In this document: in pieces, positions 34,501 through 62,194 of the stretch
Layout of the letters: every line of letters starts with the position of its first letter
Position numbering within the stretch: the first letter of the stretch is position 1
NCBI GenBank assembly: GCA_041650915.1
Contig: JBAZKE010000001.1
Location: forward strand, 187,284-251,283
DNA length: 64,000 bases
From: Patescibacteria group bacterium
GTDB lineage: Bacteria; Patescibacteriota; Patescibacteriia; UBA10025; JAHIVO01
Direction of reading: 5' to 3'
The notes under the pieces: generated by a model
What the model saw: only the letters and a program-made list of their open reading frames with translations
Database searches by the model: none
What the model was told of the DNA's origin: nothing
Translations under genes and position numbers: made by a program

Positions 34501-36749
34501 TTGAGCGTATCTGGTACGATGGCGGTGTAGACTTGTTCATGTGGGCCGGAGCGCCGGTCTTCAACCCGTGCGTTGGCATTCCCAATGCTACGTGCAATGC
34601 CTTCAACTACGCGCACCTCCTGTCGGGGAGCGCAAGCGACCATACGCCGCCGGTTTTCTTGTGGGCGCACGCGGATGGCTTCACGTTCCTTCCCGATGTC
34701 GGGCCGCCACCGCCGACCCTCCCGGGAGTCAATCCGCTGATTACAGCTTCGTTTATTGACGATATGGAGCTTGCGTATGCTGAGTTTTACATTGACGGGA
34801 TTCTCCGCCATACGTCACCGGTGGAAGCAGGCTTCTTCTACCAGTGGGATGGGTTTGTGCAGACAGATTTTTCCGAGCAGGTGCATAATTTTATGATCAG
34901 GGGCTACGATACTGCGGGCAACTATTCGGATGCGAGCGCGGACATCCAGATCACGCACAATTTCGGAGATACGACCCCGCCCTTTATACAGTTCATTAAC
35001 CCTCTCGATGGCACTACGGTATCGGGCACGGTTCAGGTCCGGGTAACGGGCAGTGATAACAGGCAGATCACGTCATTCCAGCTTGATGTGACTTGCACGG
35101 GCGGCCCTTCGTTCGGGCCCATACCGCCAGTTCCGAATCCGCATACGATTTCGTACAGTTGGGATACGACATCCCAGCCAAACGGCCCCTGCTCGCTCGA
35201 GGCGACGATCTATGACGGCACAAATCCGCCTGTCGTCGCAGCGGTTACCGTGAATATCGATAACCAGGATACGGTTGAGCCGGCCGTAACCCTGACGAGC
35301 GCCCCGGGAACGTGCGCTGCCGACGGTGCAGCCTGCAATATCAGCGTGCCGTGCGCGAACACGGTATGCGACGGCGGATCGAATGACCGCGCCGCCTGTT
35401 CCGGTCCGGCTGATTGCGATACGGGCATCCCGTGCACGCCAATCTGCGAACGTTCGGGTGTCGTTCCGGTCCAGGTAACGGCGACCGATAACCAGGCGGT
35501 CACGAGGGTTGATTTCCTTGTCGATGGCATTGTGCAGGACCAGGGAACGGAGATCGGGCCAAATACCTATGAGTGGCTATGGGATACGCGGATTTACTCG
35601 AACGGCGACCATACGCTCTCGGTGAATGCCTACGATGCTTATAGTAACAGCGGCGGTTTGAGCGTCCAGTACCGCCTGTGGAATGCCGAGCAGGATTCGG
35701 TCCCGCCAACCGTGTCTTTCGTTTCACCTCCGACCCCGGTTTACGGCTCGTCGGTCGATAATACGATAACGGTTGAAGTTGATGCTCTCGACAATCCGGG
35801 CGGTTCAGGCGTGCAAAGGGTTAACTTTTACCTCGATTACGTCTGGAAAGCTGCGGATGCGACAGCCGGGCCGTATTCATGGAACCTCGACACGCTTCCC
35901 ATCTCCGATGGCTGGCACAGAATCCAGGTTGATGCGGTCGATAACAATGGCAACCGCAGCGAGAGCATAGAAATACGGGTTGAGGTTCGCGGCACGGGGG
36001 GTCCGCTCATAACGTATGCGCTCGTGACGCCCTGCAGCGGCGGCCAGTTTACGCCGTTCAACTTTACGGCTGTCGTGACGGATCCGGATGGCGTGAGCAG
36101 GGTGGAAGCGATCATCCAGCAGCCGGATAATGTTCCGATTGACCGGTCTACCATGACTGATGCCGGCCTGGATACGTACATCGGATCTTGGAATTCCGGC
36201 ATCCACGAGGGGACATTCTTTGTTGATATTGAAGCCGAAGACGCGGCAGGGAATATTAGCTGGCTCGATAACATTGAGTGCACGGCAGTGCCCTGTGCCG
36301 TGAACGGAGATGCGTGTAGTGCCGCTTCGGACTGTTGCAGCGGTTACTGTGGCGGCGGCGGCATCTGTGCAGAGCCACCCGCCTGCCTGCCGAATGGGAA
36401 TGCATGTACGGCTAACGGGGATTGTTGCAGCAACTACTGCGATAGTGGGGGGTCGAACCAGTGTGAAGACCTGCCCTCACCCCCGACATGCCCTGACGGG
36501 AATTGTGATGTAGGCGAGGATCCGGATACATGCCCTGCTGATTGCGGGAGCAATTGGTCGGTGTACCTGTGCCATACTCAATTTGGGGAAGTACACGTGA
36601 TCAGCTCGTGGTGTGATACATCCGCAGCTTGCTCTAATCCCGGACCGCCACGGTGGGAGTGCGAAGCATCCGATCCGGCAAATCATGCGTGTCTCAATCC
36701 CGCAAGCCCCGTGGTGTGCTGCATGGTTGATGTAAACTGTGCAATATAG
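25581..36749 (+). CDS. Giant cell-surface protein (3722 aa) with signal peptide, VirB2/TrbC-like double-TM N-terminal anchor, tandem Cys-bearing beta-repeat modules, knottin-like Cys modules and Ig-like C-terminal domains
   Basis: Uninterrupted 11,169-nt ORF. N-terminus has a signal peptide (…PVHA|QAG) followed by two hydrophobic helices separated by a basic loop (…FLWMTARGDVARIDKAKKVIQRAIIGLIIVLL…). Five ~255-aa repeats each contain NHYPxCxDVCPNxxxGG…TVRLYxCxDxxC…GGNTDFxINH…YRVFL…GYSWxFKTK…YYANARSLPDSCDPAGQILDP. C-terminal CxxxxxxCxxxxxCCxxxCxxxxxC modules and Ig-like segments (PPTVSFVSPP…) follow. Confidence 0.8.
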   Translation: MGIENKKSFLRGFSASLIVGAFLLLPLFFGMSNPVHAQAGVSGELGATFGLGTADLMSTVISIVQWFLGFLGLIAVIMILYGGFLWMTARGDVARIDKAKKVIQRAIIGLIIVLLSWSIVTFIYKVVSDATSTPPLPAHCSDGIQNFDETGVDCGGVDCLPCGHILPTDDFEWDENETSFASGGDYATDVNRCSRIQALFNHNVDQASVDALWAPDNSGEIFVEGFTPVGSVEWVTSGKMLTFKHDDDLLGSDLGPVGYRLWMPKAVRDTDGSGILLETISTGVSGEGTNPHGGGTPNDAFYWDFQTGTEIDDVMPTITDTYPISDLASPWYPDQSVVRAPEIEISFNEAIDATTIYGAGGHPIAGNFVLEELASFGGAVVGTVPDANLGVEMMAQGFRIRMVPPNLLESWTWYRITIDHIEDLCGNPMPGPYVWEFQTTDLAPGVSGYYPTGSSECPDVIPTIVFNTQMFSDLVHIEINGSDGSQYIAEMRPSNINPASNPNFILGTLPGSPNMGYLQVADHAMPVDNRFRVFEFHPSDIVYNPVPLSTNTTYTVDVTTDKLIDVSTYLSQSWSFTTADAASCTCAPFITSISPNAGPRGECITVHGPCFQGTPANPASITSFTFVDPYDGIPGVTTATPDGSGPTYVATTLPLAFNDGDFARPQIEITYDPPSSFGTVASSNASVDYYVATPDTATGPCLFGINPSSGYHGTGVSLTGTRFNPTSSLKRVNFTGDFQTLTSWYDDWATTTVPGGAAYGINQVSIENDAGPSNKVPFEVSTIPPNEPVVINHYPICQDVCPTAQVGGTISLNVTASMLYGPASTVRLYECTDATCASLTFVPAADVVFTTSLIGGNTDFSINHSTGWAVDTNYRVVLTNAIQSSTGGYLSTVNYTDPFSGELAYSWTFKTKPDAAGCVMETVETIPPTASEPVGVHIDYVANARTAPDSCDPSGQILNANLFTWTWAVDDPLSRAPVPASVDASVAIPPNLNVAIATTVEPTGTDPVFIEPTATDGAVTETGSGELNVTTDPPPVPPSPAVVNHYPTCGDVCPNGQIGGAISLNVAASMVYGGGSTVRLYACADASCDPGSLTPVAPGDVVFNATYDGSSVTNFSINSATTWPADQNYRVFLSGAIADAVNGMLLSGLNWTDPLDGVSGYTWQFKTKAGAGACSLESVETIPHVFSLPETMTHNYYANARSLPDSCDPAGQILDPNPLIWSWDIRDPLSRVPAVASVDASAAVPANLNHAVATAIHSTVADPVYVRAQATDPGAPVTHEGEGEFTITADPPPIPPSPMVVNHYPTCGDVCPNGLVRGTITLDVLASLSYAPAGTVRLYSCSDPACAPGTMTFVPAADINFVPTVNGGNTDFEINHSTGWAADTGYRVFLAAGITDGVETLASINYTDPADSTPGYSWTFKTKPGAGAVCSLQSVETVPSSLILAETESYNYYANARSLPDSCDPAGQILDPNPLTWVWDVRDPLLRAPVPAIADAVPAVPPNLNHAVTTAVAGTGANPVYIRAQATDPGSAVTHEDEGTLSVSAGLPPDPQPPTVIDRNPLCNDVCPNGLIRGTISHDVAASMAYGSGSTVRLYSCSDPSCAPGTLTIVPDADITFTVTVNGGNTDFEINHASGWTPDTGYRVFLSQGITDGVRNLANPNWSDPFDGTSGYSWVFKTKPGADACVLETVDMVPSIASEPASVTISYYANARSLPDSCDPAGQIIDPYTFTWTWNINDPLARVPIVASVDASTVVPPNLNHALTTTLEPTGTDPVTVEANAQVGALSRTGSGELNITTDPPPTDPYPTVVLWYPECQDVCPNAQVGGRITLDVGASMSYTAQSDTVRLYTCSDPTCGPGTMTYVGPGMVTLTASYIGGNTEFAVNALANWPADTYYRVFLSRDIVDATYGHTLASLNWSDPFDSTPGYSWTFKTKAGSDPCALETVETLPPYASTTLGVNVTYLANGRTLPDSCDAAGQILNPAGLSWTWSYNDPFGRPGLPLATVIQDSLNHAHAIPVARTNFQPVQAVAGATQGGPIVSGAGNLDILDCTDNTFCRDHCFALTGVPNSSTCDLATGSCTPVVTSLVQNQGPIDTSFSVNGCYFGATRDDGAVMYYTAAQPGGVAAALLCGDVGWSDNQIIASMSLNPALYSAGDVVTVSPRTGSIYGALSPNPGDTEEFTLSDECIPGVSVPSGGMPILCQVVPGTAALGQDISLDGFNFVGAISSAAQFYTGSGVPPYTPGVAGSFVAAVPPYEDRYSNVTVPGAAVSSATLGVRMLVDSCPSNPVGFGVRCDDDTDCTVPGYQCCAFDPGHGENVCSLDALCSSGGPGDPCTDGAVCPVGPSCIDPANYSCLTDGGDCNCCCAPGQVSTTGLDCVTNQAPCDGGTRGLYCGCTSDADCGNPATIGCSPVAPNCCYQRPRVVTAQSTPLPGAPNVCLNAGMIVVFDQAMDNSTLIAGNIILQDVTGSTSRAITVTGMGDRALVHPDALLESNHVHRIVILGQPLGGVRSARQIALAGAGLNYDYNSDGVLDSFAWTFTTRLNTCAITGYYMRAGWATGSDFDPRVTPVSFNCAHDTCFNDRNTTHPGNNIHVYAYPLDENGNYVADSIISWSEFDPSNALLLEDPVFPPDPPSPNGINHYLTAQNSTGMVTVTVTANSPSSGTYSENFEVNVDLCTAPWPDVWAGDDYPFVDDTGNPTHETQFSVSYCREPGGLPLLNSPSVAIIDENVPSEPGRDELLKEFFFLRAGIADAIGIRVMENEGGKSPRDWYFQQFGPSAPEPQALTIDGYPAVRSGRTVYVTAWNVDLGTGIIYPNVYLMSYSDGASAETIEIYNRMLANWRFNANLTATEKAQLQRDMKRVSDLSDIFNKLLDYKAAHGTFPLLEGGTFINGVSTSRWPSWQETLGAAAGITLPVDPLNNLSPITACPSPPFDQQTCWDDAGKVYVTPASSHIYLYRASSSGDVANLYARLERIWYDGGVDLFMWAGAPVFNPCVGIPNATCNAFNYAHLLSGSASDHTPPVFLWAHADGFTFLPDVGPPPPTLPGVNPLITASFIDDMELAYAEFYIDGILRHTSPVEAGFFYQWDGFVQTDFSEQVHNFMIRGYDTAGNYSDASADIQITHNFGDTTPPFIQFINPLDGTTVSGTVQVRVTGSDNRQITSFQLDVTCTGGPSFGPIPPVPNPHTISYSWDTTSQPNGPCSLEATIYDGTNPPVVAAVTVNIDNQDTVEPAVTLTSAPGTCAADGAACNISVPCANTVCDGGSNDRAACSGPADCDTGIPCTPICERSGVVPVQVTATDNQAVTRVDFLVDGIVQDQGTEIGPNTYEWLWDTRIYSNGDHTLSVNAYDAYSNSGGLSVQYRLWNAEQDSVPPTVSFVSPPTPVYGSSVDNTITVEVDALDNPGGSGVQRVNFYLDYVWKAADATAGPYSWNLDTLPISDGWHRIQVDAVDNNGNRSESIEIRVEVRGTGGPLITYALVTPCSGGQFTPFNFTAVVTDPDGVSRVEAIIQQPDNVPIDRSTMTDAGLDTYIGSWNSGIHEGTFFVDIEAEDAAGNISWLDNIECTAVPCAVNGDACSAASDCCSGYCGGGGICAEPPACLPNGNACTANGDCCSNYCDSGGSNQCEDLPSPPTCPDGNCDVGEDPDTCPADCGSNWSVYLCHTQFGEVHVISSWCDTSAACSNPGPPRWECEASDPANHACLNPASPVVCCMVDVNCAI
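27930..31760 (+). repeat. Intragenic tandem array of 5 units of ~765 bp (252-258 aa)
   Basis: Anchor motif aaccactaccc/aaccattatcc (NHYP) recurs near 27954, 28710, 29484, 30250 and 31010. Unit lengths are 756-774 bp and units are diverged (~50-65% aa identity). Confidence 0.7.
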
Positions 36750-36847: not shown

Positions 36848-38479
36848 ATGAACAAAAAAAATAAGCTGATTGGGGTTGCGGCACTGGGGGCATGCCTGGT
36901 ACTCTTTGGCTACGGGGCGTATGCCGCATCCGAAGTCGGGTCTGAACCGACGTTCGAAGTCGATACATCACTGCCCTACGGCCCCGAATTGACCGGAGGT
37001 TTTACCATCTCTCCGCCGCAGGTTGATCCTGGCCAGCCGGTCGAGTTTTCCGCGGGTGTCTACGATCAGTCAGGCGTAAAATCCGTGTACGTCGACATTG
37101 TTTCTCCGGCGACTGACACAACGCTCAAGTCAATAGAACTGCTCGACGACGGTTCGAATGATGACGGTACGGCCGGCAACAATGTTTTTGGCAGAGGATG
37201 GGATACGAGCGGGATGAGCGTCGGTGTCTATACGGTTCGGCTGAGAATGGCTGACAAGCTGGATAACCTCAATACGCAGGATGCGGGGTACATCGCACTC
37301 GGTGAAGGCGGGTGCCTGCACGACGATGAATGCACGTCACCCGAACGCTGCTGCTACGGAGTATGCGTAAGCAATGCATGCTCGACGGATGCCGACTGTG
37401 ACGATGCAGATGATGCCACGCTCGATCGCTGCAATACGGTTGATGTCTGCCCGGCGTACTGTTCAAATAACGTATTGCCATGCGTGGGCGGAGACGGCGT
37501 CTGCCCCCCGGGATGCGGTGAAGATGCGTGGGAGTGCGTCGGCGGTGACTATAATGGTATTGCGTGCGATCCCGCTGACAGCGAGAGCTGTGGCGGTCCA
37601 TCATCGGGGAGCGTCTGCACGTTGATTGAGGCTGATTCGGACTGTACGGTAGATACGACGGCACCCGTCGTGTCTGTCCAGACCCCGGGAGATTCAGAAA
37701 CAATTGATGGAAATACCTACACTGAGTATGAGGTTACCGTTACGGCATCTGATCCGGAATCGAATATCGCGCAGGTTCGCTTTTTGCTCGATGGAACTGA
37801 GCAGTCAGTATGGCTCGGCGACCCAGCTCCCGGAACGGGGCTGTATACCTGGATTATGCCTGTCGGGCCGCTCACTGAGGGGGCTCACACTATCATTGCC
37901 GAAGCAGAGAATGGCATCGGGACACTCAGCGAGGACGGGGTATCCTTTATCTACACTGCTCCTACGTCGAGCGTTGCCCCGACAGTGAGCATTACTGCCC
38001 CTGCGAACGGCGCTACGGTTACGGGAAGCACGACCGTTGATGTGACGGCGACGGATGACGGCCTCGTCAATGAGGTTAGCTTTTACCACTGCGTTGTCGG
38101 CCTGCAGGATTCTGATTCGAGCTTTACGCCCGCCTCGACGGTTAATGTAACGCTCAACTCCTGGAATGCGACAAGCACCGCAACCGCCCTGCTCGAAAAT
38201 TACATTATGCCGTTTGCCGCGTTGCAGCAGGACGTGAAGAAGTTCAAGCTGCCGTTCGTACCGGTTGCGCATGCGGCAGATGATTCGAACTGTACCACGA
38301 CAACAACGACTCGCAACTATACGCAGTGCATCTATGCCATGGCCATTGACGACGACAGCCTTGTCGGTACCAGTGCGTACGTTTACGTGACCACTCCGAT
38401 TACGACAACAACGACAAGCTGCACGACCACAAATCGCATGGACACTCCGTCTAGTGCGTCCAGCAGCTCGGCAATCTAG
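36848..38479 (+). CDS. Secreted surface protein, paralogous in module content to the C-terminal part of the upstream giant protein
   Basis: 543 aa. Signal peptide (LGACLVLFGYGAYAAS), a knottin-like Cys module (CLHDDECTSPERCCYGVCVSNAC…) and Ig-like domains (TAPVVSVQTPGDSE…, APTVSITAPANGATVTGS…). RBS AAAGGAG upstream of the start. Confidence 0.7.
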   Translation: MNKKNKLIGVAALGACLVLFGYGAYAASEVGSEPTFEVDTSLPYGPELTGGFTISPPQVDPGQPVEFSAGVYDQSGVKSVYVDIVSPATDTTLKSIELLDDGSNDDGTAGNNVFGRGWDTSGMSVGVYTVRLRMADKLDNLNTQDAGYIALGEGGCLHDDECTSPERCCYGVCVSNACSTDADCDDADDATLDRCNTVDVCPAYCSNNVLPCVGGDGVCPPGCGEDAWECVGGDYNGIACDPADSESCGGPSSGSVCTLIEADSDCTVDTTAPVVSVQTPGDSETIDGNTYTEYEVTVTASDPESNIAQVRFLLDGTEQSVWLGDPAPGTGLYTWIMPVGPLTEGAHTIIAEAENGIGTLSEDGVSFIYTAPTSSVAPTVSITAPANGATVTGSTTVDVTATDDGLVNEVSFYHCVVGLQDSDSSFTPASTVNVTLNSWNATSTATALLENYIMPFAALQQDVKKFKLPFVPVAHAADDSNCTTTTTTRNYTQCIYAMAIDDDSLVGTSAYVYVTTPITTTTTSCTTTNRMDTPSSASSSSAI

Positions 38480-38510
38480 CTTGTGCGAGTGGTAAAGGAA
38501 AATTCACGTA

Positions 38511-39158
38511 ATGACTGATAAAGATACAAAACAAGTCGAAGATATTTTCGCTGAAGCTGATTCTGGGGGCACTGCACGCAGTGCCCCCCAGAAAAAAGCG
38601 CCGGTAAAACCAATTGCACAGCCGGCACCGGCCGCACGGGAAGTGAGAAATATCCAGCCGACAGCCAATCGTCCGCAGTACCGGAAGACGAAGATTATGC
38701 TAATAGTGCTTTTGAGCGCTGGGGCGCTCATCGTCGTCGGCGGCGGTGCAGTGCTCGTGACAAGCGGGGTATTCTCCGGTGAAAATGCGAACAGCACTCC
38801 CGCAACGAACAGTGCGGCAACGGACGGGTCCGCACCGACGGTTAATGTACCGACGAACAGCTCCGGGACGGTACGGCTGCAGAAAGTAGATTTGAGTTTG
38901 CAGCCGGTTGATACGGATAGTGACGGACTCACCGATGCAGAGGAAGCTGAGCTCGGCACGGATATCCGCACGGTTGACACGGATGGCGACGGCCTCTATG
39001 ACCGTGAGGAGGTTCGGGTATACGGTACGGATCCCCTGCAAACCGATACAGATCAGGATGGCATTGTTGACGGGACCGAGGTTGCAAACGGGTATGATCC
39101 TTCCGGACCGGGGATGCTGCTCGATTTGGATGCTGCAATTGAGAGGCTTCAATCTTAA
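38511..39158 (+). CDS. Single-pass membrane protein with thrombospondin-type-3/dockerin-like Ca2+-binding repeats
   Basis: 215 aa. Cytoplasmic basic N-terminus, one TM helix (IMLIVLLSAGALIVVGGGAVLV), a Thr/Asn-rich linker, then DTDSDGLTDAEE / DTDGDGLYDREE / DTDQDGIVDGTE repeats. Confidence 0.65.
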   Translation: MTDKDTKQVEDIFAEADSGGTARSAPQKKAPVKPIAQPAPAAREVRNIQPTANRPQYRKTKIMLIVLLSAGALIVVGGGAVLVTSGVFSGENANSTPATNSAATDGSAPTVNVPTNSSGTVRLQKVDLSLQPVDTDSDGLTDAEEAELGTDIRTVDTDGDGLYDREEVRVYGTDPLQTDTDQDGIVDGTEVANGYDPSGPGMLLDLDAAIERLQS

Positions 39159-39181
39159 TATGCTTTATTAATACCTTTGGT

Positions 39182-40318
39182 ATGCCAGACAATCCACAGC
39201 AAGGGCAGACGGGCAGTCCAGCGCCGAGCCAGCGTAAAGCGCGCATCCATACAATGCCGGATAAGTTTTACATTGATGATGCCGGCGGCGGTGGCAGCAA
39301 AAATACATTCTTAATCATTGGAATAATCATTCTCGTCGTTGCGATCCTTGGGGCTGCAACCTTTTTTCTGCTCCAGCGGTACGGAGGCGGTGAAGATAAT
39401 GCGAACAGCGCAACGAATGCCACGACAAACGGTGTGAGCAATATAAATACAGGCAATGTAAACGCAGCGACGAATAGTACCGTCAATACGCTGGCTAACG
39501 CCAATGCTGCGCTCAATACCAATACTTCTAACGGCAATGTCAATGCCGCGTTGAATGTCAATTCCATTACCAACAATCTATTCCCGAACAGCAATACGGC
39601 AACGAATACCGCCTCCAATGTCAATGCAATCGTTTCGAGCAGGGATTCTGACTCCGATAGCCTCACCGATATTGAAGAAGCTCTTTTTGGAACCAATTTA
39701 TCGCTATCAGATACTGACGGCGATGGCTACCAGGACGGCCAGGAGGTAACGAGCGGGTACGATCCGAACGGGACATCTGCGCTCGATGAGAACAGCGCCG
39801 TGTACCGGTATACGGACGGCGTCGGCAGCTATTCAATCCTGTATCCAAACGCGTGGGATGTTGCAACGGATCCGCAGAGCGCATACGGTAAAATGTTCAG
39901 CAGCACCAACGGTGAATTCATCGAGGTTTCGATTGAAGAAAACCCGGCGAAGTTGGGCGCACGTGACTGGTACCTGACGAAGTCGCCCGGCATTGATTCA
40001 ACTCAGATTTTGTCCGTCTCAACGTGGGACGGCAAGCTCGTCGGGGTGAAGAGCCCAGACGGCTCCACCGTATACTATACGAAGGGAGATAACGCGTACG
40101 TGATATCGTATAACATCAATATCCTCTCGGAAGCAAACTTCCTTACGACGTTCGAAATGATGTACCAGAGTTTCGTAGTAATTGAATCAGCGCTCACCAA
40201 TACGAATACGAACACGTCAAATACAAATTCAAATACCAATGTAAATGTTAATTCCAATGGAAATTCAAATACCAATACAAATACAAATAGCAACACGAAC
40301 AGCACGCCTCATCTGTAA
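39182..40318 (+). CDS. Single-pass membrane protein with Asn-rich low-complexity segments and a DxDxDG Ca2+-binding motif
   Basis: 378 aa. TM helix (FLIIGIIILVVAILGAATFFLL), Asn/Thr-rich tracts, DSDSDSLTDIEEALFGTN…DTDGDGYQDGQE, a globular segment, and a C-terminal (N-T/S-N)n tail. The stop abuts the ybeY start. Confidence 0.65.
   Translation: MPDNPQQGQTGSPAPSQRKARIHTMPDKFYIDDAGGGGSKNTFLIIGIIILVVAILGAATFFLLQRYGGGEDNANSATNATTNGVSNINTGNVNAATNSTVNTLANANAALNTNTSNGNVNAALNVNSITNNLFPNSNTATNTASNVNAIVSSRDSDSDSLTDIEEALFGTNLSLSDTDGDGYQDGQEVTSGYDPNGTSALDENSAVYRYTDGVGSYSILYPNAWDVATDPQSAYGKMFSSTNGEFIEVSIEENPAKLGARDWYLTKSPGIDSTQILSVSTWDGKLVGVKSPDGSTVYYTKGDNAYVISYNINILSEANFLTTFEMMYQSFVVIESALTNTNTNTSNTNSNTNVNVNSNGNSNTNTNTNSNTNSTPHL
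40195..40313 (+). repeat. Imperfect AAY-ACN microsatellite-like coding repeat (Asn-Thr/Ser)n
   Basis: aatacgaatacgaacacgtcaaatacaaattcaaataccaatgtaaatgttaattccaatggaaattcaaataccaatacaaatacaaatagcaacacgaacagc. Confidence 0.5.
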
Positions 40319-43828: not shown

Positions 43829-43924
43829 TTTTTTGGAAAAAAATTGAGCGGACTATACCTTTTTTAAAACAAAAAAATTTAAAAAAACCGCCAACCATAG
43901 TAACAAAAAAGCCTTACATTATTG

Positions 43925-43978
43925 ACAAATCTATATGTTGTAGTATACTGTATGGTAGGACTACAATATGTAGATAAA
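43925..43978 (+). promoter_or_regulatory. Candidate NrdR boxes / promoter of the nrdR-nrdJ operon
   Basis: Imperfect palindromes 'atctatatgttgtagtat' and 'ctacaatatgtagat', about 30 bp apart and just upstream of the nrdR ATG. They resemble the NrdR-box consensus (acaCwAtATaTwGtgt) only loosely. Confidence 0.3.
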
Positions 43979-43987
43979 TAAATTGAT

Positions 43988-44464
43988 ATGAAATGCCCTG
44001 CTTGCCACCATCCAGATTCAAAGGTCACTGATTCGCGGCTCGTGAATGATGGCATGGCAGTTCGGCGCAGGAGAGAGTGTTTGGAGTGTAAGTTTCGCTT
44101 CTCAACCTATGAAGAGGTTGAGATTTTGGACCTTGCTGTCATCAAGAGTGATGGCCGGCGCGAACCATACGCTCGAGAAAAGCTCGAGAACGGCCTGAAG
44201 AAGGCATTTGAGAAGCGCCCAATCACCAAAGATGGCTTTAAGCAGCTTATCAGCACGATCGAGCGAGACATCCAGCTCGCCGCGAAAGAAGAGATAGAAA
44301 GCAGCACGCTCGGCGAGATCGTCATGAAGCACCTGAAGCGTAAGGACCAGGTCGCGTACATCCGTTTTGCATCGGTATACCGGTCGTTTGAGGACGTTGA
44401 GACGTTTCAGGAAGAGCTCATGAAGCTCAGCAAACCGAAAAAAACAAGGACCGTTAGAAAATAA
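43988..44464 (+). CDS. nrdR: Transcriptional repressor NrdR
   Basis: 158 aa. N-terminal zinc ribbon 'MKCPACHHPDSKVTDSR…CLECKFRFSTYE' plus an ATP-cone. Confidence 0.9.
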   Translation: MKCPACHHPDSKVTDSRLVNDGMAVRRRRECLECKFRFSTYEEVEILDLAVIKSDGRREPYAREKLENGLKKAFEKRPITKDGFKQLISTIERDIQLAAKEEIESSTLGEIVMKHLKRKDQVAYIRFASVYRSFEDVETFQEELMKLSKPKKTRTVRK

Positions 44465-44493
44465 TTATAAACTAACACTTCCCCAAAGAGCGT

Positions 44494-46785
44494 ATGGTAA
44501 AAATAAAAAATATCAAGAAGCGGAGCGGCCAGATCGTGGCATTTGACCAGCAGAAGATTGCAAACGCGATCTATAAGGCTACGAAGTCGATCCAGAAGGA
44601 AGACGCGAAGCTCGCAGACAAGCTTTCAAAAAAGGTGGTCAGCATACTCCGGAAGAAATTTGATGAAACGACAGTGCCGACAGTCGAGCAAATACAGGAT
44701 ATTGTTGAAGAAGTTCTCATCAAAGAAGATCAGATCCAGCTGGCGAAAGCATATATTCTCTACCGGAAGGAGCACCAGAAGATTCGGGAAGCAAAGGGGT
44801 CGTACATCGGCTTGCCCGAGCTCGATACAAAGCTCTCAATCAATGCGCTCCGCGTGCTCAGCAAGCGGTACCTGCGTAAAGCTCGGAACGGCAAGGTAGT
44901 TGAAACACCGAAAGAGATGTTCCGCCGGGTTGCCCAGAATATCGCCCAGGCGGATGAACGCTACGATAGCCTGCTCAACCAGGAAGTTGATGCGGAGAAG
45001 ACCGAGCGGGAGTTCTATAAGATGATGTTTAATTTGGAGTTTATCCCGAATTCTCCGACGCTCATGAACGCCGGCAAGGAATTGCAGCAGCTCGCCGCAT
45101 GTTTTGTGTTGCCGGTCGGCGATTCGATGGAGGAGATTTTTGATGCGGTTAAGTGGACAGCCCTCGTCCACAAGACGGGCGGCGGGACCGGCTTCGCGTT
45201 TTCGAGGCTCCGCCCGAAGAGCGATCGCGTCATGTCTACCAAGGGCGTCGCATCCGGTCCCGTTTCATTCATGACGGTATTTGATGCAGCCACTGAGACG
45301 GTCAAGCAGGGAGGCACGCGCCGGGGCGCGAATATGGGCATCCTCCGCGTTGACCACCCTGATATACTGGAGTTTGTGACTGCGAAAGAAAATAATGACA
45401 GGCTCAATAATTTTAATATTTCTGTGGCGGTCACCGAGGATTTTATGCGTGCCGTTGAGCAGGGCACCGAGTATGATTTGCTGAATCCGAGGAATAAAGA
45501 ATCGGTGGACAGGTTGAACGCACGAAAAGTGTTCGACCTGATCGTGACGCTCGCGTGGAAGAATGGCGATCCGGGCATCGTTTTCATTGACCGCATCAAT
45601 AAGGACAATCCAACGCCGCACGTGGGCGAGATTGAGGCGACGAATCCGTGCGGTGAGCAGCCGCTCCTTCCCTTTGAGGCGTGCAACCTCGGCTCGATCA
45701 ACCTCGCAAAGATGGTACAGGGAGACTTCTCGCTCGGCGAGCCGGTTGAAATGGACTGGGATAAGCTCCGAAAAACAGTCCGGATGTCCATCCACTTCCT
45801 CGATAACGTTATCGATATGAGCAACTACCCGCTGCCGCAGATTACTGAAATGGTCAATAACAACAGGAAGATCGGCCTTGGAGTTATGGGGTGGGCTGAC
45901 CTGCTCATCATGCTCGGGATACCGTACGATTCCGATGAGGCGGTGGAATTCGCCGAAAAGGTGATGAAGTTCATCAAGGATGAGTCGAGGAAAATGTCGC
46001 ATGAACTCGCCGAGGACCGCGGCCAGTTTCCGAATTTTGAAGGGAGCATTTTTGATACGAAGGACGCGCTCAAGTTGCGGAATGCGACTACCAATACGAT
46101 CGCGCCGACTGGCACGATCAGCATTATCGCTGGATGCTCTTCCGGCATTGAGCCGCTCTTCGCGATCTCATACATCCGCAACGTGATGGACGATAATGAG
46201 CTCATCGAGGTCAATCCGATTTTCGAGCAACTCGCACGTCGTGAGGGCTTCTACTCCGAGGAGCTCATGAAAAAAATCGCTGAGGCAGGCGGTGTGCAGG
46301 GTTTGGATGAGGTACCGGCGAAGTGGCAGCGCCTGTTTGTCGTATCTCACGACATCATGCCGGAGTGGCACCTGAAAATGCAGGCCGCGTTCCAAAAGTA
46401 TACGGACAATGCGGTTTCAAAAACCGTCAACTTCGCGCACGATGCGACTGCAGCCGATATCGAGCAGGTGTACATGCTCGCCTTCAAGCACGGCTGCAAA
46501 GGCGTGACGATCTACCGTGATCGATCGCGCGAATCGCAGGTACTCAACATCGGCAAGGTAAACCATAAAGAGCAGAAGAAGTCGTTCAGCTACAGCTATG
46601 ATGCTATTCGAAATGGGGCAACCGAACGCGAAGCGGAGCCGGCCGAAACTGAAGCAAAAGAAAAGGTGCCGGTTACCGCCGGCCACGGCATTAAAATTTG
46701 CCCTGACTGCAAGAGTGCAATGGAGGTCAAGGAAGGATGCTCAACCTGTCCGAACTGCGGATTTTCCGCATGCAGCCTTGGTTAA
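44494..46785 (+). CDS. nrdJ: Class II (adenosylcobalamin-dependent) ribonucleotide reductase
   Basis: 763 aa. N-terminal ATP-cone, RNR core with 'NPCGEQPL', 'PTLMNAGKE' and 'CNLGSINL' motifs, and a C-terminal Cys-rich tail CPDCK…CSTCPNCG. No beta subunit or glycyl-radical motif is present. Confidence 0.85.
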   Translation: MVKIKNIKKRSGQIVAFDQQKIANAIYKATKSIQKEDAKLADKLSKKVVSILRKKFDETTVPTVEQIQDIVEEVLIKEDQIQLAKAYILYRKEHQKIREAKGSYIGLPELDTKLSINALRVLSKRYLRKARNGKVVETPKEMFRRVAQNIAQADERYDSLLNQEVDAEKTEREFYKMMFNLEFIPNSPTLMNAGKELQQLAACFVLPVGDSMEEIFDAVKWTALVHKTGGGTGFAFSRLRPKSDRVMSTKGVASGPVSFMTVFDAATETVKQGGTRRGANMGILRVDHPDILEFVTAKENNDRLNNFNISVAVTEDFMRAVEQGTEYDLLNPRNKESVDRLNARKVFDLIVTLAWKNGDPGIVFIDRINKDNPTPHVGEIEATNPCGEQPLLPFEACNLGSINLAKMVQGDFSLGEPVEMDWDKLRKTVRMSIHFLDNVIDMSNYPLPQITEMVNNNRKIGLGVMGWADLLIMLGIPYDSDEAVEFAEKVMKFIKDESRKMSHELAEDRGQFPNFEGSIFDTKDALKLRNATTNTIAPTGTISIIAGCSSGIEPLFAISYIRNVMDDNELIEVNPIFEQLARREGFYSEELMKKIAEAGGVQGLDEVPAKWQRLFVVSHDIMPEWHLKMQAAFQKYTDNAVSKTVNFAHDATAADIEQVYMLAFKHGCKGVTIYRDRSRESQVLNIGKVNHKEQKKSFSYSYDAIRNGATEREAEPAETEAKEKVPVTAGHGIKICPDCKSAMEVKEGCSTCPNCGFSACSLG

Positions 46786-46886
46786 TGGGGTAATAACCGG
46801 GAGTTTTCCCTCATAGCCCCTTTTTCCTCCGCATACCTTACCTCGGGGCCCGCGAGATTTGTAGGCTCGGCAGAGCATCGATTTTT

Positions 46887-47432
46887 ATGAAGTATAAAGT
46901 CATAGATCGGGGTTTGGTGCACGTTTACACTGGCGATGGCAAGGGAAAGACCACCGCGGCATTGGGATTGGCAGTGCGGGCGATCAGCTATAGGAAAAGG
47001 GTGCTTATCGTGCAGTTTATCAAGGGGCCGTGGCGTTCGGGTGAGCTGAATATTATACAGCGGCTGCGGCCGTACCTTACTATCCATGCGATGGGAGAGG
47101 GTTTCGTCAAGATACTCGGCGACCGCAAACCCCTGAGCGTGCATAGGAAAGCTGCACAGGGCGCGCTGCGTTTTGCGCAGCGGGCAATGCGGTCAGGCAG
47201 GTATGATATCGTTGTTCTCGACGAGGTCAATGTGGCGGTACGCGAGCGCCTGCTGGCGGTATCGCAGGTTGCTGAGCTGGTCAGAAAGAAGCCACGTGAA
47301 CTTGAGCTCGTATTGACCGGAAGAAATGCCGCTGCTACAATTGAAAGGCTCGCTGATTACGTTTCCCATATTCGTGAGATTCGGCACCCCTACCGGCGGG
47401 GCATTCTTGCCCGGCAGTCGATCGACTATTAA
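46887..47432 (+). CDS. cobO: Cob(I)yrinic acid a,c-diamide / cob(I)alamin adenosyltransferase (CobO/CobA/BtuR family)
   Basis: 181 aa. P-loop 'GDGKGKTTAALGLAVRA', 'VQFIKG' and 'VVLDE' motifs of the BtuR/CobA family. Confidence 0.85.
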   Translation: MKYKVIDRGLVHVYTGDGKGKTTAALGLAVRAISYRKRVLIVQFIKGPWRSGELNIIQRLRPYLTIHAMGEGFVKILGDRKPLSVHRKAAQGALRFAQRAMRSGRYDIVVLDEVNVAVRERLLAVSQVAELVRKKPRELELVLTGRNAAATIERLADYVSHIREIRHPYRRGILARQSIDY

Positions 47433-47439
47433 CAATTTA

Positions 47440-47633
47440 TTATAGCGAAGGGAAGTGTGGTGGAAAACCAACGCGATCCCGTCACTGTAATCGGGGAATT
47501 TGCTTCCGTATCATGCCACTGGCTTGCTCGCGTGTGAGCTAGCTGGGAAGGCAGGGAGCAGGTTGAGATCCGAGAGCCAGAATACCTTCGTGCACGGAAA
47601 GTCCCTTCGGTTGAGAGGGCGAAAGATTAAACG
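47440..47633 (+). promoter_or_regulatory. Cobalamin (B12) riboswitch aptamer
   Basis: GAAGGGAAgtgtGGTGGAAAACCaacgcgaTCCCGtCACTGTaa … atcatGCCACTGGcttg … GGGAAGGCagg … GAGCCAGAATACCttcg. These match the conserved AGGGAA / GGTGnAAAnCC / CCCGCCACTG / GGGAAGGC / B12-box elements in the canonical order. Confidence 0.6.
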
Positions 47634-47686
47634 AATCTTAGCTTTGAGACCACTGTGGGGAGGCTAAGATTTTTTAAAAAAAGGAA
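47634..47686 (+). terminator. Intrinsic terminator forming the riboswitch expression platform
   Basis: AATCTTAGCtttgagaccactgtggggagGCTAAGATTTTTTaaaaaaa immediately 5' of the AAGGAA RBS and the ATG at 47691. Confidence 0.55.
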
Positions 47687-47690
47687 TCCT

Positions 47691-48176
47691 ATGAAGCACC
47701 AAACACATGTCGGCTATACCGTCGCGGTTGTTGCGCTCGGCGTTGCTTTTATGACCGCGCTCGCCCTATTCGGGTACACGGTCGAGCAGGATGTAGCGGA
47801 GATAGCGCAGCAGCGCTATGATGCGGTTCAGGCGCCAGTTCCGTCAGGGCAGGTTGCCGGCGTCGCCGTTGAGCTCGCCACGGTTAGCATTGATCGCGGT
47901 AACGGCAATTCAATCAGCTATCAGATTGAGGTGTCCGGAGAGACGACAGTCCTCGATGCGCTCGAGCTTGCGGCTGATCAGTACGGTCTGGAGATCAAGA
48001 CGACGGAGTACGACTTCGGCACCATCGTCGATGGGATCGGGGGGATGCTCGGCGGATTTGAAAATCAGTATTGGATTTACTATATCGACGGCGTCATGGC
48101 GGTCAGCTCAGTCGATACCCAGATCGTGGAGCCCGGCGATATGGTCGAGTTTCGATTCGAAGAAAGCACGTTTTAG
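47691..48176 (+). CDS. DUF4430-domain protein (putative membrane-anchored corrinoid-binding protein)
   Basis: N-terminal TM anchor (VGYTVAVVALGVAFMTALALFGY) followed by a beta-rich domain ending '…GFENQYWIYYIDGVMAVSSVDTQIVEPGDMVEFRFE', characteristic of DUF4430. It is the first gene after the B12 riboswitch. Confidence 0.6.
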   Translation: MKHQTHVGYTVAVVALGVAFMTALALFGYTVEQDVAEIAQQRYDAVQAPVPSGQVAGVAVELATVSIDRGNGNSISYQIEVSGETTVLDALELAADQYGLEIKTTEYDFGTIVDGIGGMLGGFENQYWIYYIDGVMAVSSVDTQIVEPGDMVEFRFEESTF

Positions 48177-48204
48177 CACGTCAGTGATGAAAGAGGACAA
48201 CCAC

Positions 48205-48738
48205 ATGAAAAAAAACATTTACTTTCTGCTCTTCCTGGCGCTCATCGCCGGGGCGAGCGTACTCATGCGGCTGCTGCCGCACCCCGCAAACTTCATTCCG
48301 ATCGGCGCCCTCGCACTCTTCAGCGGGACGCACATCCGGTCGCGGTGGGGAATTCTCCTGCCGGTCGCGGTAATGGCAGTGAGCGATATCATCATAGGCC
48401 TGCACAGCCTCTACCTTGTTACCTGGGGCAGCTTTCTCCTGATCGGCATGATCGGCTGGTGGGTACGGAACAAGAAGAGTGCGCTGCGCATCGTCAGCGG
48501 ATCCGTGACGGGCTCAGTTCTATTTTTTCTGTTGACGAATTTTGCCGTATGGCTCTTCACGCCGCTCTACGCAAAGACTACGGCAGGGCTTGTACAGTGC
48601 TACTATATGGCAATCCCGTTTTTTAGAAATACCATCCTTGGTGATCTGTTCTACGTCGCTGTTTTTTTCGGCCTGTACGCCATTATCAGAAAAACAGCGG
48701 CTGTATACCGCAAGCAATCCATGACGGCAATCCAGTAG
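48205..48738 (+). CDS. Small polytopic membrane protein, ECF-transporter S-component-like (candidate corrinoid-specific CbrT-type)
   Basis: 178 aa with ~5-6 TM helices, co-transcribed with the DUF4430 gene downstream of the B12 riboswitch. Family assignment is by context and architecture only. The longer six-frame ORF from 47818 overlaps the DUF4430 gene and is rejected. Confidence 0.45.
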   Translation: MKKNIYFLLFLALIAGASVLMRLLPHPANFIPIGALALFSGTHIRSRWGILLPVAVMAVSDIIIGLHSLYLVTWGSFLLIGMIGWWVRNKKSALRIVSGSVTGSVLFFLLTNFAVWLFTPLYAKTTAGLVQCYYMAIPFFRNTILGDLFYVAVFFGLYAIIRKTAAVYRKQSMTAIQ

Positions 48739-56718: not shown

Positions 56719-58245
56719 GTGCGGAAGGGATTTTGCATGGGTGGGATAACAAAATCGAAAATATTCTGTGCGGTCTGTCTGAGCGTTGTACTCGGCGTCG
56801 GCATTCGGTCCTTTTTTACGGTTCCGGTCGCTCTGCTGTACGCTGCAGGCATGCTTGGCTGTACAGTGATGCTCGTATGGTGGGCATCAAAACCTGCCCG
56901 GCTCATCGGCCTGTCAATCATCGCGCTAACTGTTGGTGTCGTCCGCTATGAGCTTGCCATGCCAGCCGTTGACGGCGGCTCCATCGCATCGTACAACGGC
57001 ACCGCAGTCCGGTTTGCCGGCATTGTCGCGGCAGAGCCGGACCAGCGGAAAGACCACACTAAATTAACGGTCGAAGCGCAGCGTGGCATAGCAGGCGCGC
57101 CTGCTGCGCTGCATGGTAAAGTGCTCGTGAAGACAACACCCTATCCGGCGTACGGGTACGGTGACCTGCTTGATATTACCTGCAGCTTAGTCGCCCCCGA
57201 GCCGATTGAGTTTGAAACCGACGTTGGCATCCGGACGTTTCGGTACGACCAGTACCTGTCGAGGTTTTCGATCTACTCGCTCTGCTACCGTCCGAGCATT
57301 ACAAAGGCGGCAGCTGGCCAGGGAAACGTTCTCCTCGGCGGTGCGCTCGCCGTGAAGGGATATTTCGTTTCCCTCGTGCAGGACGTATTTGCCGAGCCGC
57401 ACGCGTCTTTCCTCAACGGGCTCCTGCTCGGAGCGAAGAAAAGCATCCCGGACGATCTCATGGAGGCGTTTAATAGGACCGGCACGACGCACATCGTAGC
57501 GCTCTCCGGGTACAATATTGCGATCATCGCGGTGCTGGTCCAGAAGCTATGCTTGCGGCTGTGGATTTCCAGGAAGAGGGCTTTCTGGGCATCACTCGGG
57601 GCAATTTGCTTTTTTGTGCTTATCACTGGAGCGCAGGCCTCCGTTTTGCGCGCCGGGATCATGGGCATGCTCGTGCTCCTCGCGCTGCAGCTCGGGCGGC
57701 TGAGCAGGATAACCAATACGCTTGTACTTGCAGCTGCCGTCATGGTGCTGATCAACCCGAAGGTACTCGTTTTCGATGCGGGCTTCCAACTCTCGTTCCT
57801 CGCGACGATCGGGCTCGTGTACGTCTCACCGCAGCTCGAAAGGCTCTTCTCGTGGGTGCCGGCTGCGTTCGAGCTGCGGGGGAGCCTGACGGCGACGCTC
57901 GCAGCGACGGCAATGACGCTCCCGCTCATTATTTTCCAGTTCGGCCGGCTCTCAGCGGTGTCGCCGGTCGTCAATGTTTTGATCCTTCCAGCGATTCCGA
58001 TAGCTATGGGTTTCGGTTTTGTTACTGGCCTTGCGGCGCTCGTTTCCGTCGGCGCAGCGCGCGTGCTGGGCTGGATCGTATGGGCGATACTGAGCTACAT
58101 CATGCTCGTTGTTGAATTTTTTTCGAACCTTCCGTTTTCATCATTTAACATCGGCCAAATCAGCTGGTTGTGGGTTGCGGTGAGTTACGTAACGATCGCC
58201 GTGCTGATCCTGCTCAGCAGACAGCCGGGGAGGCAACGGGCGTAG
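56719..58245 (+). CDS. comEC: DNA internalisation competence protein ComEC/Rec2, N-terminal OB (DUF4131) and membrane competence domain
   Basis: 508 aa polytopic membrane protein with 'TGTTHIVALSGYNIAIIAVLV' competence-domain motifs. Ends 1 nt before the next ORF. Confidence 0.8.
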   Translation: MRKGFCMGGITKSKIFCAVCLSVVLGVGIRSFFTVPVALLYAAGMLGCTVMLVWWASKPARLIGLSIIALTVGVVRYELAMPAVDGGSIASYNGTAVRFAGIVAAEPDQRKDHTKLTVEAQRGIAGAPAALHGKVLVKTTPYPAYGYGDLLDITCSLVAPEPIEFETDVGIRTFRYDQYLSRFSIYSLCYRPSITKAAAGQGNVLLGGALAVKGYFVSLVQDVFAEPHASFLNGLLLGAKKSIPDDLMEAFNRTGTTHIVALSGYNIAIIAVLVQKLCLRLWISRKRAFWASLGAICFFVLITGAQASVLRAGIMGMLVLLALQLGRLSRITNTLVLAAAVMVLINPKVLVFDAGFQLSFLATIGLVYVSPQLERLFSWVPAAFELRGSLTATLAATAMTLPLIIFQFGRLSAVSPVVNVLILPAIPIAMGFGFVTGLAALVSVGAARVLGWIVWAILSYIMLVVEFFSNLPFSSFNIGQISWLWVAVSYVTIAVLILLSRQPGRQRA

Positions 58246-58246
58246 T

Positions 58247-59107
58247 ATGCAGTTCAAGAAGACCATCGTCATTTCCTCCGGCGCGCTCTTCCTGAGCTGC
58301 ATGCTCGTGTGCGTAACGTTCTGGTACGATGCGTCGTCACGGGAGCTGACCGTCACGTTTTTTGATGTCGGGCAGGGAGACAGCATTTTCATCCAGACAC
58401 CCTCACGGCATACGGTTCTCATCGACGGCGGACCGGATGCGGGCGTCCTGGCAAAAGTCGGCAGGCGGATGCCGTTCTACGACCGAACTATCGATCTCGT
58501 AATCTTGACGCACGTTCACGCCGACCACATTGCCGGGCTGGTACCGATCATCGAACGGTACGATGTCGGCACCGTCCTTTTCTCGAACATCGATTACACG
58601 TCGCCGGAGTACAGAGCTTGGCTCGAAACGATCGACGAGAAAGAAATCGAAGCCGTCTCGCCGCGCGCCCGCTTACAGTATCAGTTTGGTGAGGTGGATT
58701 TGGAAATCCTCTATCCGTTCGATGAGATTTCCGGCCCGTTCGGCGGGGATATCAATGATACGTCAGTCGTTGCCCGGATGCAGTATGGCAGCACCTCGTT
58801 TTTATTTACCGGGGACGCGTCAGCGTCCGTTGAGGGGGAATTGTTGCTGCAGTACGGTTCGGCGGCGCTCGAGAGCGATGTTCTGAAGGTTGGCCACCAC
58901 GGCAGCAAGTACTCATCGTCGCTCGAATTTCTCGAGGTGGTGGGCCCCCGGTACGCGGTTGTGCAGGTGGGGGAGGGCAATAGCTTCAGCCACCCGCACC
59001 GCATGGTGATGAAGCGGCTCGAGGGTCTCGGCATAAGCGTTTACCGAACCGATGAGCTCGGTGATATTACGCTCTGCAGCGACGGAAGCGCGCTCAGCAT
59101 TGAGTAG
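58247..59107 (+). CDS. ComEC C-terminal metallo-beta-lactamase-fold domain as a separate ORF
   Basis: 286 aa. 'FFDVGQGDSIFIQ', 'LTHVHADHIAGL', 'GHHGS' MBL motifs and an N-terminal TM helix. The ATG at 58247 follows the TAG at 58243-58245. Confidence 0.8.
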   Translation: MQFKKTIVISSGALFLSCMLVCVTFWYDASSRELTVTFFDVGQGDSIFIQTPSRHTVLIDGGPDAGVLAKVGRRMPFYDRTIDLVILTHVHADHIAGLVPIIERYDVGTVLFSNIDYTSPEYRAWLETIDEKEIEAVSPRARLQYQFGEVDLEILYPFDEISGPFGGDINDTSVVARMQYGSTSFLFTGDASASVEGELLLQYGSAALESDVLKVGHHGSKYSSSLEFLEVVGPRYAVVQVGEGNSFSHPHRMVMKRLEGLGISVYRTDELGDITLCSDGSALSIE

Positions 59108-61648: not shown

Positions 61649-62194
61649 GTGGCTGAAGAAAGAAACAAAGAAGCGGAGCAGGCCATCCGCGGAGCAATTG
61701 ATGAGCTCAATGGCATATGGGGCGATACGCTCCAGTTCGTGAGGGATCTGATTAAAGATCTCCCCGCGTTCAAGCTGCTGCTCGTATTCCTCGCTGGCGG
61801 CATCGCTGCGGACATTTTCTTCAACCGGCTCGAAAAGCTGGTCGCTGAAGATGCTGAGGAGCGAATGATCGCCCGCCAAATGCTGTGGCAGCACCGGCGG
61901 AAGCTTGCCGAACACTACGGCAAGCTCGGCTGGGAAAAGGTCATTAAACTCGCTAAAAAGATCAAGGGGAAATACCCGGATCTTTTGGACTGGCTTGCTA
62001 AAAGGGGCTGGGAGGACACTGTTCATGCAAATGGGCTGATCGAGCAAGGCAATGCTCGTTTAGCTCAAACCGGGCTTTTCTCCTGGTTGCAGTGCCCGCC
62101 CTTTGCAGGTCCCAAGCGGATACCCAGTTCAACCGCTTGCAAACTGTTGCCTGCACCGGTAGGGACGATGGAGGTGAACGATGAAAGCAACTGA
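61649..62194 (+). CDS. Hypothetical protein with one predicted TM helix
   Basis: 181 aa. The stop overlaps the start of the next gene (GGAGGTGAACG-ATGA). Confidence 0.45.
   Translation: MAEERNKEAEQAIRGAIDELNGIWGDTLQFVRDLIKDLPAFKLLLVFLAGGIAADIFFNRLEKLVAEDAEERMIARQMLWQHRRKLAEHYGKLGWEKVIKLAKKIKGKYPDLLDWLAKRGWEDTVHANGLIEQGNARLAQTGLFSWLQCPPFAGPKRIPSSTACKLLPAPVGTMEVNDESN

Follow-up and report, generated by a model that had tools for sequence, protein, structure and literature searches.

Most prokaryotes that require vitamin B12 (cobalamin) do not make it, and many of them have no known membrane importer (PMC6072759). ECF-CbrT, an energy-coupling factor (ECF) transporter, imports vitamin B12 in Lactobacillus delbrueckii (PDB 6fnp), and homologues of CbrT share 25-60% identity by the authors' account (PMC5997447). 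BtuM of Thiobacillus denitrificans is a candidate B12 transporter that resembles a solitary ECF substrate-binding (S) component; it is encoded next to btuB, in organisms without an ECF module, and its authors found 131 homologues, mostly proteobacterial (PMC6072759). For capture of the vitamin outside the cytoplasm, Burroughs et al. defined in 2007 a transcobalamin-like clade of SLBB domains with the β-grasp fold, whose bacterial members are secreted or at the cell surface, are in some cases fused to an α/α toroid and were predicted to scavenge B12 (PMC1796856). Here we describe a locus in a 64-kb stretch of DNA (the window) from a Patescibacteria group bacterium, in which a cobalamin riboswitch stands between genes for a B12-dependent ribonucleotide reductase and its cofactor-making enzyme and two small genes of the families DUF4430 and DUF6580.

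The gene order is nrdR, nrdJ, cobO, riboswitch, DUF4430 gene and DUF6580 gene, all on the forward strand. A class II reductase, CobO, a B12 riboswitch, a transcobalamin-like SLBB domain and a membrane protein resembling an S-component are already known kinds of element. The original prediction, made from the letters of this window, had listed all six, and each is present within a few bases of where it had been placed.

We consider it likely that the locus is a self-contained B12 unit, in which a riboswitch-gated corrinoid uptake pair (DUF4430 and DUF6580) feeds CobO and NrdJ. DUF4430, anchored in the membrane, would capture complete corrinoid with its outside β domain, and DUF6580 would take the corrinoid across the membrane. 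CobO would convert the imported corrinoid to adenosylcobalamin (AdoCbl), which NrdJ would use to make deoxyribonucleotides. When AdoCbl is plentiful, its binding to the aptamer would let a terminator form and turn the uptake genes off, while NrdR would control the reductase operon. As in btuB and btuFCD operons, an AdoCbl-type aptamer lies upstream of (candidate) uptake genes, consistent with repression when B12 is sufficient. Unlike in those operons, the cargo families are different and uncharacterised, and the riboswitch sits at the tail of an operon for a B12 user and its activator.

The DUF4430 and DUF6580 proteins

Neither protein matched the PDB in single-sequence searches, and profiles were required. 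The DUF4430 gene starts at ATG 47691 behind an AAGGA ribosome-binding site, and its product is identical to database protein P0121. Two longer open reading frames (ORFs), one from GTG 47655 and one of 306 aa from 47818, were rejected as over-extended, as ribosome-binding site positions and database proteins favour the starts at 47691 and 48205.

An AlphaFold 2 model of the DUF4430 protein, built from an alignment of 50 relatives, had a mean predicted local distance difference test (pLDDT) score of 84.9. Its β-rich domain (residues 62-158) scored above 90, the linker was of low confidence, and an N-terminal helix (residues 6-46) preceded by a positive N-terminus reads as a membrane anchor. When the model was compared with the PDB by Foldseek, the top 19 matches were all β-domain regions of transcobalamin, intrinsic factor or haptocorrin, isolated transcobalamin β domains, or the orphan structure 3u7z (E 1e-6 to 1e-5). 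Across the isolated domains the target-normalised template modelling (TM) score was 0.77-0.84, including 0.77 to the human transcobalamin β domain 5np4, which was crystallised with cyanocobalamin. The sequence profile also reached haptocorrin (E 3e-4), with the conserved I.G...YW motif aligned. As modelled, the domain is a transcobalamin-type β domain (SLBB, β-grasp) with a hairpin insert, and it is predicted to be extracytoplasmic.

DUF4430 thus shares with transcobalamin, intrinsic factor, haptocorrin and the bacterial SLBB proteins its β-grasp fold, its I.G...YW motif, a predicted location outside the cytoplasm and a predicted role in B12 scavenging. Unlike the three eukaryotic carriers, the window protein is a β domain tethered by an N-terminal helix, and we propose that the receiver of its ligand would be a membrane permease, not an endocytic receptor. 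The fold and profile matches make it a candidate corrinoid binder. Because of these matches and the 2007 SLBB prediction (PMC1796856), the name "putative corrinoid-binding protein" given by the original prediction is well founded, and the idea is not new.

The DUF6580 gene has an AAGAGGA ribosome-binding site 7 nt upstream of its start at 48205, with an alternative ATG at 48187. Its product is identical to database protein P0001, which NCBI names "DUF6580 family putative transport protein"; given this name, the curators may know of a link to transport. The AlphaFold 2 model, from an alignment of 24 relatives (A1), had a pLDDT of 92.9 and six helices. Seven of the eight best PDB folds were ECF S-components (RibU, FolT, the S chains of 4hzu and 4huq, ThiT and 5edl), with query-normalised TM scores of 0.51-0.60 and Foldseek probabilities of 0.82-1.0.

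The only PDB sequence match of the DUF6580 family profile was to the first ~80 residues of 6fnp_A (E 0.0048), which we take to be CbrT, the S-component of the L. delbrueckii B12 ECF transporter. Alignment with hhalign gave a probability of 73% for an N-terminal match of 59-74 residues at 27% identity. Both proteins are small, six-helix membrane proteins, and they have in common motifs at the end of helix 1, in loop 1 and in helix 3 (R..P.N..P and S[D/N]..IGF), with the invariant R22, N29 and P32 aligned. Membership of the CbrT family was ruled out, as the N-terminal match is not accompanied by full-length similarity. The CbrT fragment belongs to PF12822, unlike DUF6580, which has its own family (PF20221).

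Some DUF6580 relatives match PF12822 or PF07155 over most of their length at 18-19 bits (cut-offs 26.7-30.7), and the window protein matches neither at E up to 0.01. Membership of the Pfam ECF_trnsprt family was ruled out on this ground. BtuM ligates cobalt through its essential Cys80, whereas the 24-sequence alignment of DUF6580 contains no conserved cysteine and no obvious redox motif. Since the DUF6580 profile also matched no BtuM chain at E up to 10, membership of the BtuM family was ruled out as well. DUF6580 is the broader of the two families, with 6,558 clusters (50% identity) at E up to 1e-3 and 4,769 (~4,800) at E up to 1e-10, from many phyla. Judged by its profiles and model, DUF6580 is S-component-like and distantly related to CbrT, yet forms a separate family. 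The "ECF-type membrane component" of the original prediction therefore stands as far as the fold and the distant CbrT similarity go; the protein belongs to DUF6580 and lacks a PF12822 match, and the window contains no ECF module for it to work with.

In the searchable literature, we found no description of DUF6580, of its linkage to riboswitches or of its pairing or fusion with DUF4430. We also found nothing relevant there on PF14478, or on cobalamin, riboswitches or adenosyltransferases in Patescibacteria/Candidate Phyla Radiation (CPR).

Conserved linkage of the pair to B12

A scan of one genome per species yielded at least 566 DUF6580 loci. We kept the best 80, which came from Patescibacteria, Ignavibacteriota, Bacteroidota, Acidobacteriota, Verrucomicrobia, Elusimicrobia, Planctomycetota, Omnitrophota, Nanoarchaeia and metagenome-assembled genomes (MAGs) labelled Gammaproteobacteria; complete genomes with DUF6580 include CP066685.1 and OY970322.1. 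Rfam, run on 78 of these loci (589 kb), detected 50 riboswitches of the cobalamin clan (RF00174, RF01482 and RF01689), and 49 of the 50 lay on the DUF6580 strand (binomial p 9e-14). At least one riboswitch was present in 45 of the 78 loci. In 38 loci one lay upstream on the same strand, and in all but one of these (37/38) no sizeable ORF on the opposite strand intervened.

An iterated profile found DUF4430 in 43 of the 80 loci, directly upstream of DUF6580 in 34. The two are also naturally fused: the metagenomic protein P0305 (337 aa) consists of DUF6580 (residues 5-165), an extra transmembrane helix (~189-213) and DUF4430 (255-329). The topology of this fusion is that implied by the two-gene arrangement, as the S-component would end in the cytoplasm and the β domain would lie outside.

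NrdJ was encoded in 26 of the 80 loci, often with NrdR, and 20 of the 26 also carried an adjacent DUF4430-DUF6580 pair. Some DUF6580 loci encode a CobO-type adenosyltransferase. In 11 tested loci the unrelated PduO type (PF01923) replaces it, upstream in L047, L073 and L074 and downstream of DUF6580 in L002, L005, L006, L015, L016, L023, L025 and L029; by sequence family, one enzyme type has taken the genomic slot of another to which it is not orthologous. Gram-negative DUF6580 loci, like that of BtuM, adjoin BtuB-like proteins, in this case riboswitch-controlled TonB-dependent receptors. Families that recur among 117 further neighbours include TonB receptors, thioredoxins, Diphthami_syn_2, B12-binding domains and BtuF-like binding proteins, and no corrin-synthesis or nucleotide-loop assembly (cobS/U/T-type) family recurs among them. 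A motif search of the 80 loci found no ATP-binding cassette (ABC) ATPase beside the DUF6580 block; the one ORF with the motif lies ~3 kb away on the opposite strand. These linkages to riboswitches, NrdJ and adenosyltransferases tie both downstream genes to B12, as the original prediction had proposed.

The order nrdR-nrdJ-adenosyltransferase-riboswitch-DUF4430-DUF6580, with slight variation, is a standard layout in Patescibacteria. We could therefore not uphold the earlier description of the arrangement as "unusually tidy", since many Patescibacteria-like loci share it. Database records that encode the DUF4430 protein were the same locus (L081) and a single relative, L082, which has exactly the gene order of the window locus and proteins 75% identical to those encoded here.

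Several observations concern the related loci in their own right. Large CPR proteins (~580-920 aa), under riboswitch control, are encoded between a small DUF4430 gene and DUF6580. Some have weak matches to α/α-toroid families (SQHop_cyclase_C and Prenyltrans; L022:1861-3918, L068:2111-3937 and L070:2155-3960), so that these larger paralogues appear to have the toroid domain; others carry a DUF4430 domain (L029:2214-3944, L045:1083-2960, L048:820-3576, L051:1747-3987 and L054:363-2180). Taken together, their domain matches suggest that bacteria have a counterpart of the complete transcobalamin architecture, with both toroid and β domain.

A second family, of ~360-430-aa proteins, has no Pfam, NCBIfam or PDB-sequence match and no homologue in the window. 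In several of these loci its gene immediately follows a second cobalamin-clan riboswitch a short way downstream of DUF6580, in some with a PduO adenosyltransferase and in others without. Members are L016:5267-6349, L025:5068-6192, L035:4683-5858 and L056:4692-5915, and also L002:5123-6514, L074:4687-5937, L006:5235-6527 and L023:5000-6190; the core of the family shows 31-43% pairwise identity. Among the recurrent same-strand neighbours of DUF6580, Diphthami_syn_2 (PF01902) has five members and thioredoxin four, and DUF5074 and BtuF-like Peripla_BP_2 proteins also occur.

MAGs titled "uncultured Gammaproteobacteria" (L006, L016, L029, L051, L056, L065, L070, L074 and L075) have Patescibacteria-like gene orders: nrdR-nrdJ-DUF4430-DUF6580-PduO in several and riboswitch-DUF4430-large protein-DUF6580 in others. 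As these orders are typical of Patescibacteria loci, the record labels look doubtful.

The riboswitch, the reductase operon and the rest of the window

The original prediction had placed a cobalamin riboswitch at 47400-47700. Rfam detected one there, directly upstream of the two genes and on the same strand, and it is the only riboswitch in the whole window. Its B12 box, GCCACTGG, lies near 47516. The 5′ end of the aptamer overlaps the final codons of cobO, and P1 pairing is poor. From the end of the aptamer to ATG 47691 of the DUF4430 gene are 84 nt.

Between aptamer and gene, directly 5′ of the ribosome-binding site, both minimum-free-energy and centroid folds contain a terminator-like hairpin of 13 bp (47633-47645 paired with 47660-47672) with a 14-nt loop and a run of six U residues (47670-47675). 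A simple terminator scan did not report this hairpin because its loop exceeds 8 nt. Compared with L082, the aptamer and hairpin are 90% identical, whereas the neighbouring 3′ end of cobO diverges, and all four differences in the hairpin fall in the loop. This conservation, with the differences confined to the loop, fits a transcription-termination switch.

Transcription may reach the aptamer both by read-through and from a second promoter-like site at 47313-47341, given that we saw no terminator between nrdJ, cobO and the riboswitch and that this site lies in the end of cobO. Its hexamers and spacing are unchanged in L082; as the site is within coding sequence, this conservation is weak evidence.

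Features of the B12 locus in the window. Positions count from the first letter of the 64-kb stretch.
Feature	Position	Strand	Evidence
Sigma-70-like promoter TTGACA-16-TATACT, 5′ of nrdR	43922..43949	+	11/12 matches; consensus match only
Two NrdR-box-like palindromes over the nrdR promoter	43931..43973	+	13 bp each, 30 bp apart
nrdR	43988..44464	+	TIGR00244, 191.9 bits (cut-off 124.65); Zn_ribbon_NrdR and ATP-cone
nrdJ, class II AdoCbl-dependent reductase, 763 aa	44494..46785	+	NF006417, TIGR02504, PF02867
cobO/cobA/btuR, ATP:cob(I)alamin adenosyltransferase	46887..47432	+	PF02572, TIGR00708; P-loop GDGKGKTT
Promoter-like site TTGACC-17-TACAAT with TG, in the 3′ end of cobO	47313..47341	+	Candidate start of the riboswitch transcript
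Cobalamin riboswitch aptamer, RF00174	47405..47607	+	63.6 bits (gathering score 31.5), E 2.2e-13, full model 1-189
Putative expression platform, terminator-like hairpin and U6	47633..47675	+	Minimum-free-energy and centroid folds
DUF4430 protein, 161 aa, candidate corrinoid binder	47691..48176	+	PF14478, 38.9 bits (cut-off 23.8)
DUF6580 protein, 177 aa, six transmembrane helices, candidate corrinoid permease	48205..48738	+	PF20221, 171.9 bits (gathering score 27)

The reductase is of class II, as had been predicted. NrdJ scored above the cut-offs of the models for vitamin B12-dependent ribonucleotide reductase (NF006417, 1064.4 bits, cut-off 961) and NrdJ_Z (TIGR02504, 760.6 bits, cut-off 399.95), with 460 bits to PF02867, while the class I model TIGR02506 reached 352.6 bits and the class III model NRDD fell under its cut-off. 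The protein has an N-terminal ATP-cone, a barrel and a C-terminal Cys-rich ribbon. The adenosyltransferase that follows is of the CobA/CobO type, again as expected: it matched positions 2-172 of the 172 in PF02572 (197 bits) and scored 172.3 bits with TIGR00708 (cut-off 167.75).

NrdR is a dATP/ATP-sensing repressor of ribonucleotide reductase genes. Over the nrdR promoter are two NrdR-box-like palindromes, CTATATGTTGTAG at 43931-43943 and CTACAATATGTAG at 43961-43973. The pattern CTAYANNNTGTAG, built post hoc from these two sites themselves, occurs in the 64 kb at just these two places (expected 0.04). From this sequence arrangement we read nrdR, nrdJ and cobO as one operon, whose promoter the NrdR-box-like sites overlap.

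When every other long ORF in the window was scanned with Pfam, there was no second ribonucleotide reductase and no cob or cbi gene (ParA alone touches the CbiA P-loop family), in agreement with the claims that nrdJ is the only reductase here and that de novo cobalamin biosynthesis is absent from the window. The same scans found no ECF T or A component and no B12-binding domain. The window also contains no NrdB/F small subunit or activase and no ORF with an ABC-ATPase motif.

Elsewhere the window holds genes typical of Patescibacteria/CPR, among them those for PilM/PilT, ComEC, DprA, a dockerin protein and a single ORF of 3722 aa (25581-36749) with a signal-anchor-like N-terminal segment. ComEC, usually one protein, is split over two adjacent ORFs, one with DUF4131 and Competence domains (56719-58245) and one with the metallo-beta-lactamase domain (58247-59107). 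Cell-surface proteins with Big_7 and TSP3 repeats are encoded at 36848-40318, and a multi-pass membrane protein with a C-terminal dockerin type I domain (62181-63998) is cut by the end of the window.

How the pair could import corrinoids

Several points weigh against the proposed uptake unit. The roles of the DUF4430 and DUF6580 families are predictions from sequences and models, and an ECF module, BtuCDF or cob genes may be encoded elsewhere in the genome. About 40% of DUF6580 loci have no riboswitch at the gathering score within ~4 kb. DUF6580 resembles the S-component fold moderately (best Foldseek E 0.011, TM ~0.6), and its match to CbrT extends no further than the third helix. The window DUF4430 protein consists of anchor helix, linker and β domain only, without the α/α toroid, which in eukaryotic carriers forms half of the B12 pocket; as modelled, it would work like a carrier domain and not as a full transcobalamin-type carrier. 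Finally, because the hairpin is AU-rich with a large loop, and the whole region folds no better than shuffled sequences (z = -0.88), we regard transcription termination by this hairpin as plausible and infer the mechanism only.

We are least sure of how transport would be powered. The genomic contexts rule out a dedicated (group I) ECF operon, as no ABC ATPase gene is adjacent. By analogy with BtuM, we favour transport without a dedicated ECF ATPase module. The main alternative is that DUF6580 is a group II S-component that, like CbrT, uses an EcfT-EcfA-EcfA′ module shared with other S-components and encoded elsewhere; import would then be driven by ATP, and DUF4430 would be an accessory binder. 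The S-component-like fold, the distant CbrT homology and the weak PF12822/PF07155 matches of some family members are all compatible with this alternative, and genes for group II S-components are normally scattered away from their module. In Firmicutes, moreover, transcobalamin-like SLBB genes occur in operons with CbiO/CbiQ-like genes (PMC1796856). However, CbrT works with an EcfAA′T module and without a transcobalamin-like partner, whereas DUF6580 is paired with DUF4430 and has no such module nearby, either here or in the 80 loci, where the lone, distant ABC-ATPase-motif ORF was the sole candidate. The AxxxA motif of helix 1, with which S-components contact EcfT, is by inspection not conserved in the 24-sequence alignment. 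Many carriers are Gram-negative and encode BtuB-like receptors next to DUF6580, as has been described for BtuM, which is independent of ECF modules; for this reason we rate a shared module below solitary function and think it rather unlikely.

Both of these possibilities assume that the cargo is an intact corrinoid. The pair could instead import a precursor (cobinamide), a lower ligand (5,6-dimethylbenzimidazole (DMB) or α-ribazole, as proposed for CblT) or cobalt. Substrate specificity is unreadable from sequence, and transporters of cobalt and of precursors can likewise be under B12 riboswitch control (PMC3766115). The partner of DUF6580, however, is a transcobalamin β domain, and in the solved complexes this domain touches complete cobalamin on its nucleotide-loop side. 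What recurs nearby are proteins that use or activate complete B12 (NrdJ and adenosyltransferases) and BtuB-like receptors; no nucleotide-loop assembly or corrin-synthesis family recurs among the 117 further neighbours, and cobalt or DMB alone would have no evident use in such a genome. On the strength of the partner domain and the neighbours, import of a precursor, lower ligand or cobalt is very improbable.

That the pair is a membrane-bound device for handling or sensing corrinoids (by surface decyanation or reduction, storage or competition), with import left to another system, deserves hardly any credence, again in view of the partner domain and the neighbours. BtuM itself couples binding with chemical modification, and Bacteroides is reported to have several surface B12 binders that are not transporters. 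Against this reading, the window offers no other candidate importer, the S-component fold is a transporter fold, repression by a B12 riboswitch is the classic logic of uptake genes, and DUF6580 has neither a conserved cysteine nor an obvious redox motif.

We therefore return to DUF4430 and DUF6580 as a riboswitch-gated corrinoid uptake pair. A wider proposal, which we put forward tentatively and hold with less than even confidence, is that together they make up a previously uncharacterised corrinoid importer of two parts, independent of any ECF module. Patescibacteria and DPANN archaea would take up B12 chiefly this way, and many Ignavibacteriota, Bacteroidota, Acidobacteriota and relatives without BtuCDF would use it, paired with BtuB, as a route across the inner membrane. 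For CPR, DPANN and several Gram-negative phyla, the pair gives a B12-importer candidate that lends itself to testing.

If DUF6580 and DUF4430 do form such an importer, a route of B12 entry would be named for the ultra-small, symbiotic CPR and DPANN lineages. DUF6580 would be a third S-component-type family of B12 transporters beside CbrT and BtuM, coupled to a prokaryotic relative of the human B12 carrier domain. As the sole visible B12 user at this locus is the enzyme that makes DNA precursors, replication in CPR and DPANN would depend on corrinoids made by others.

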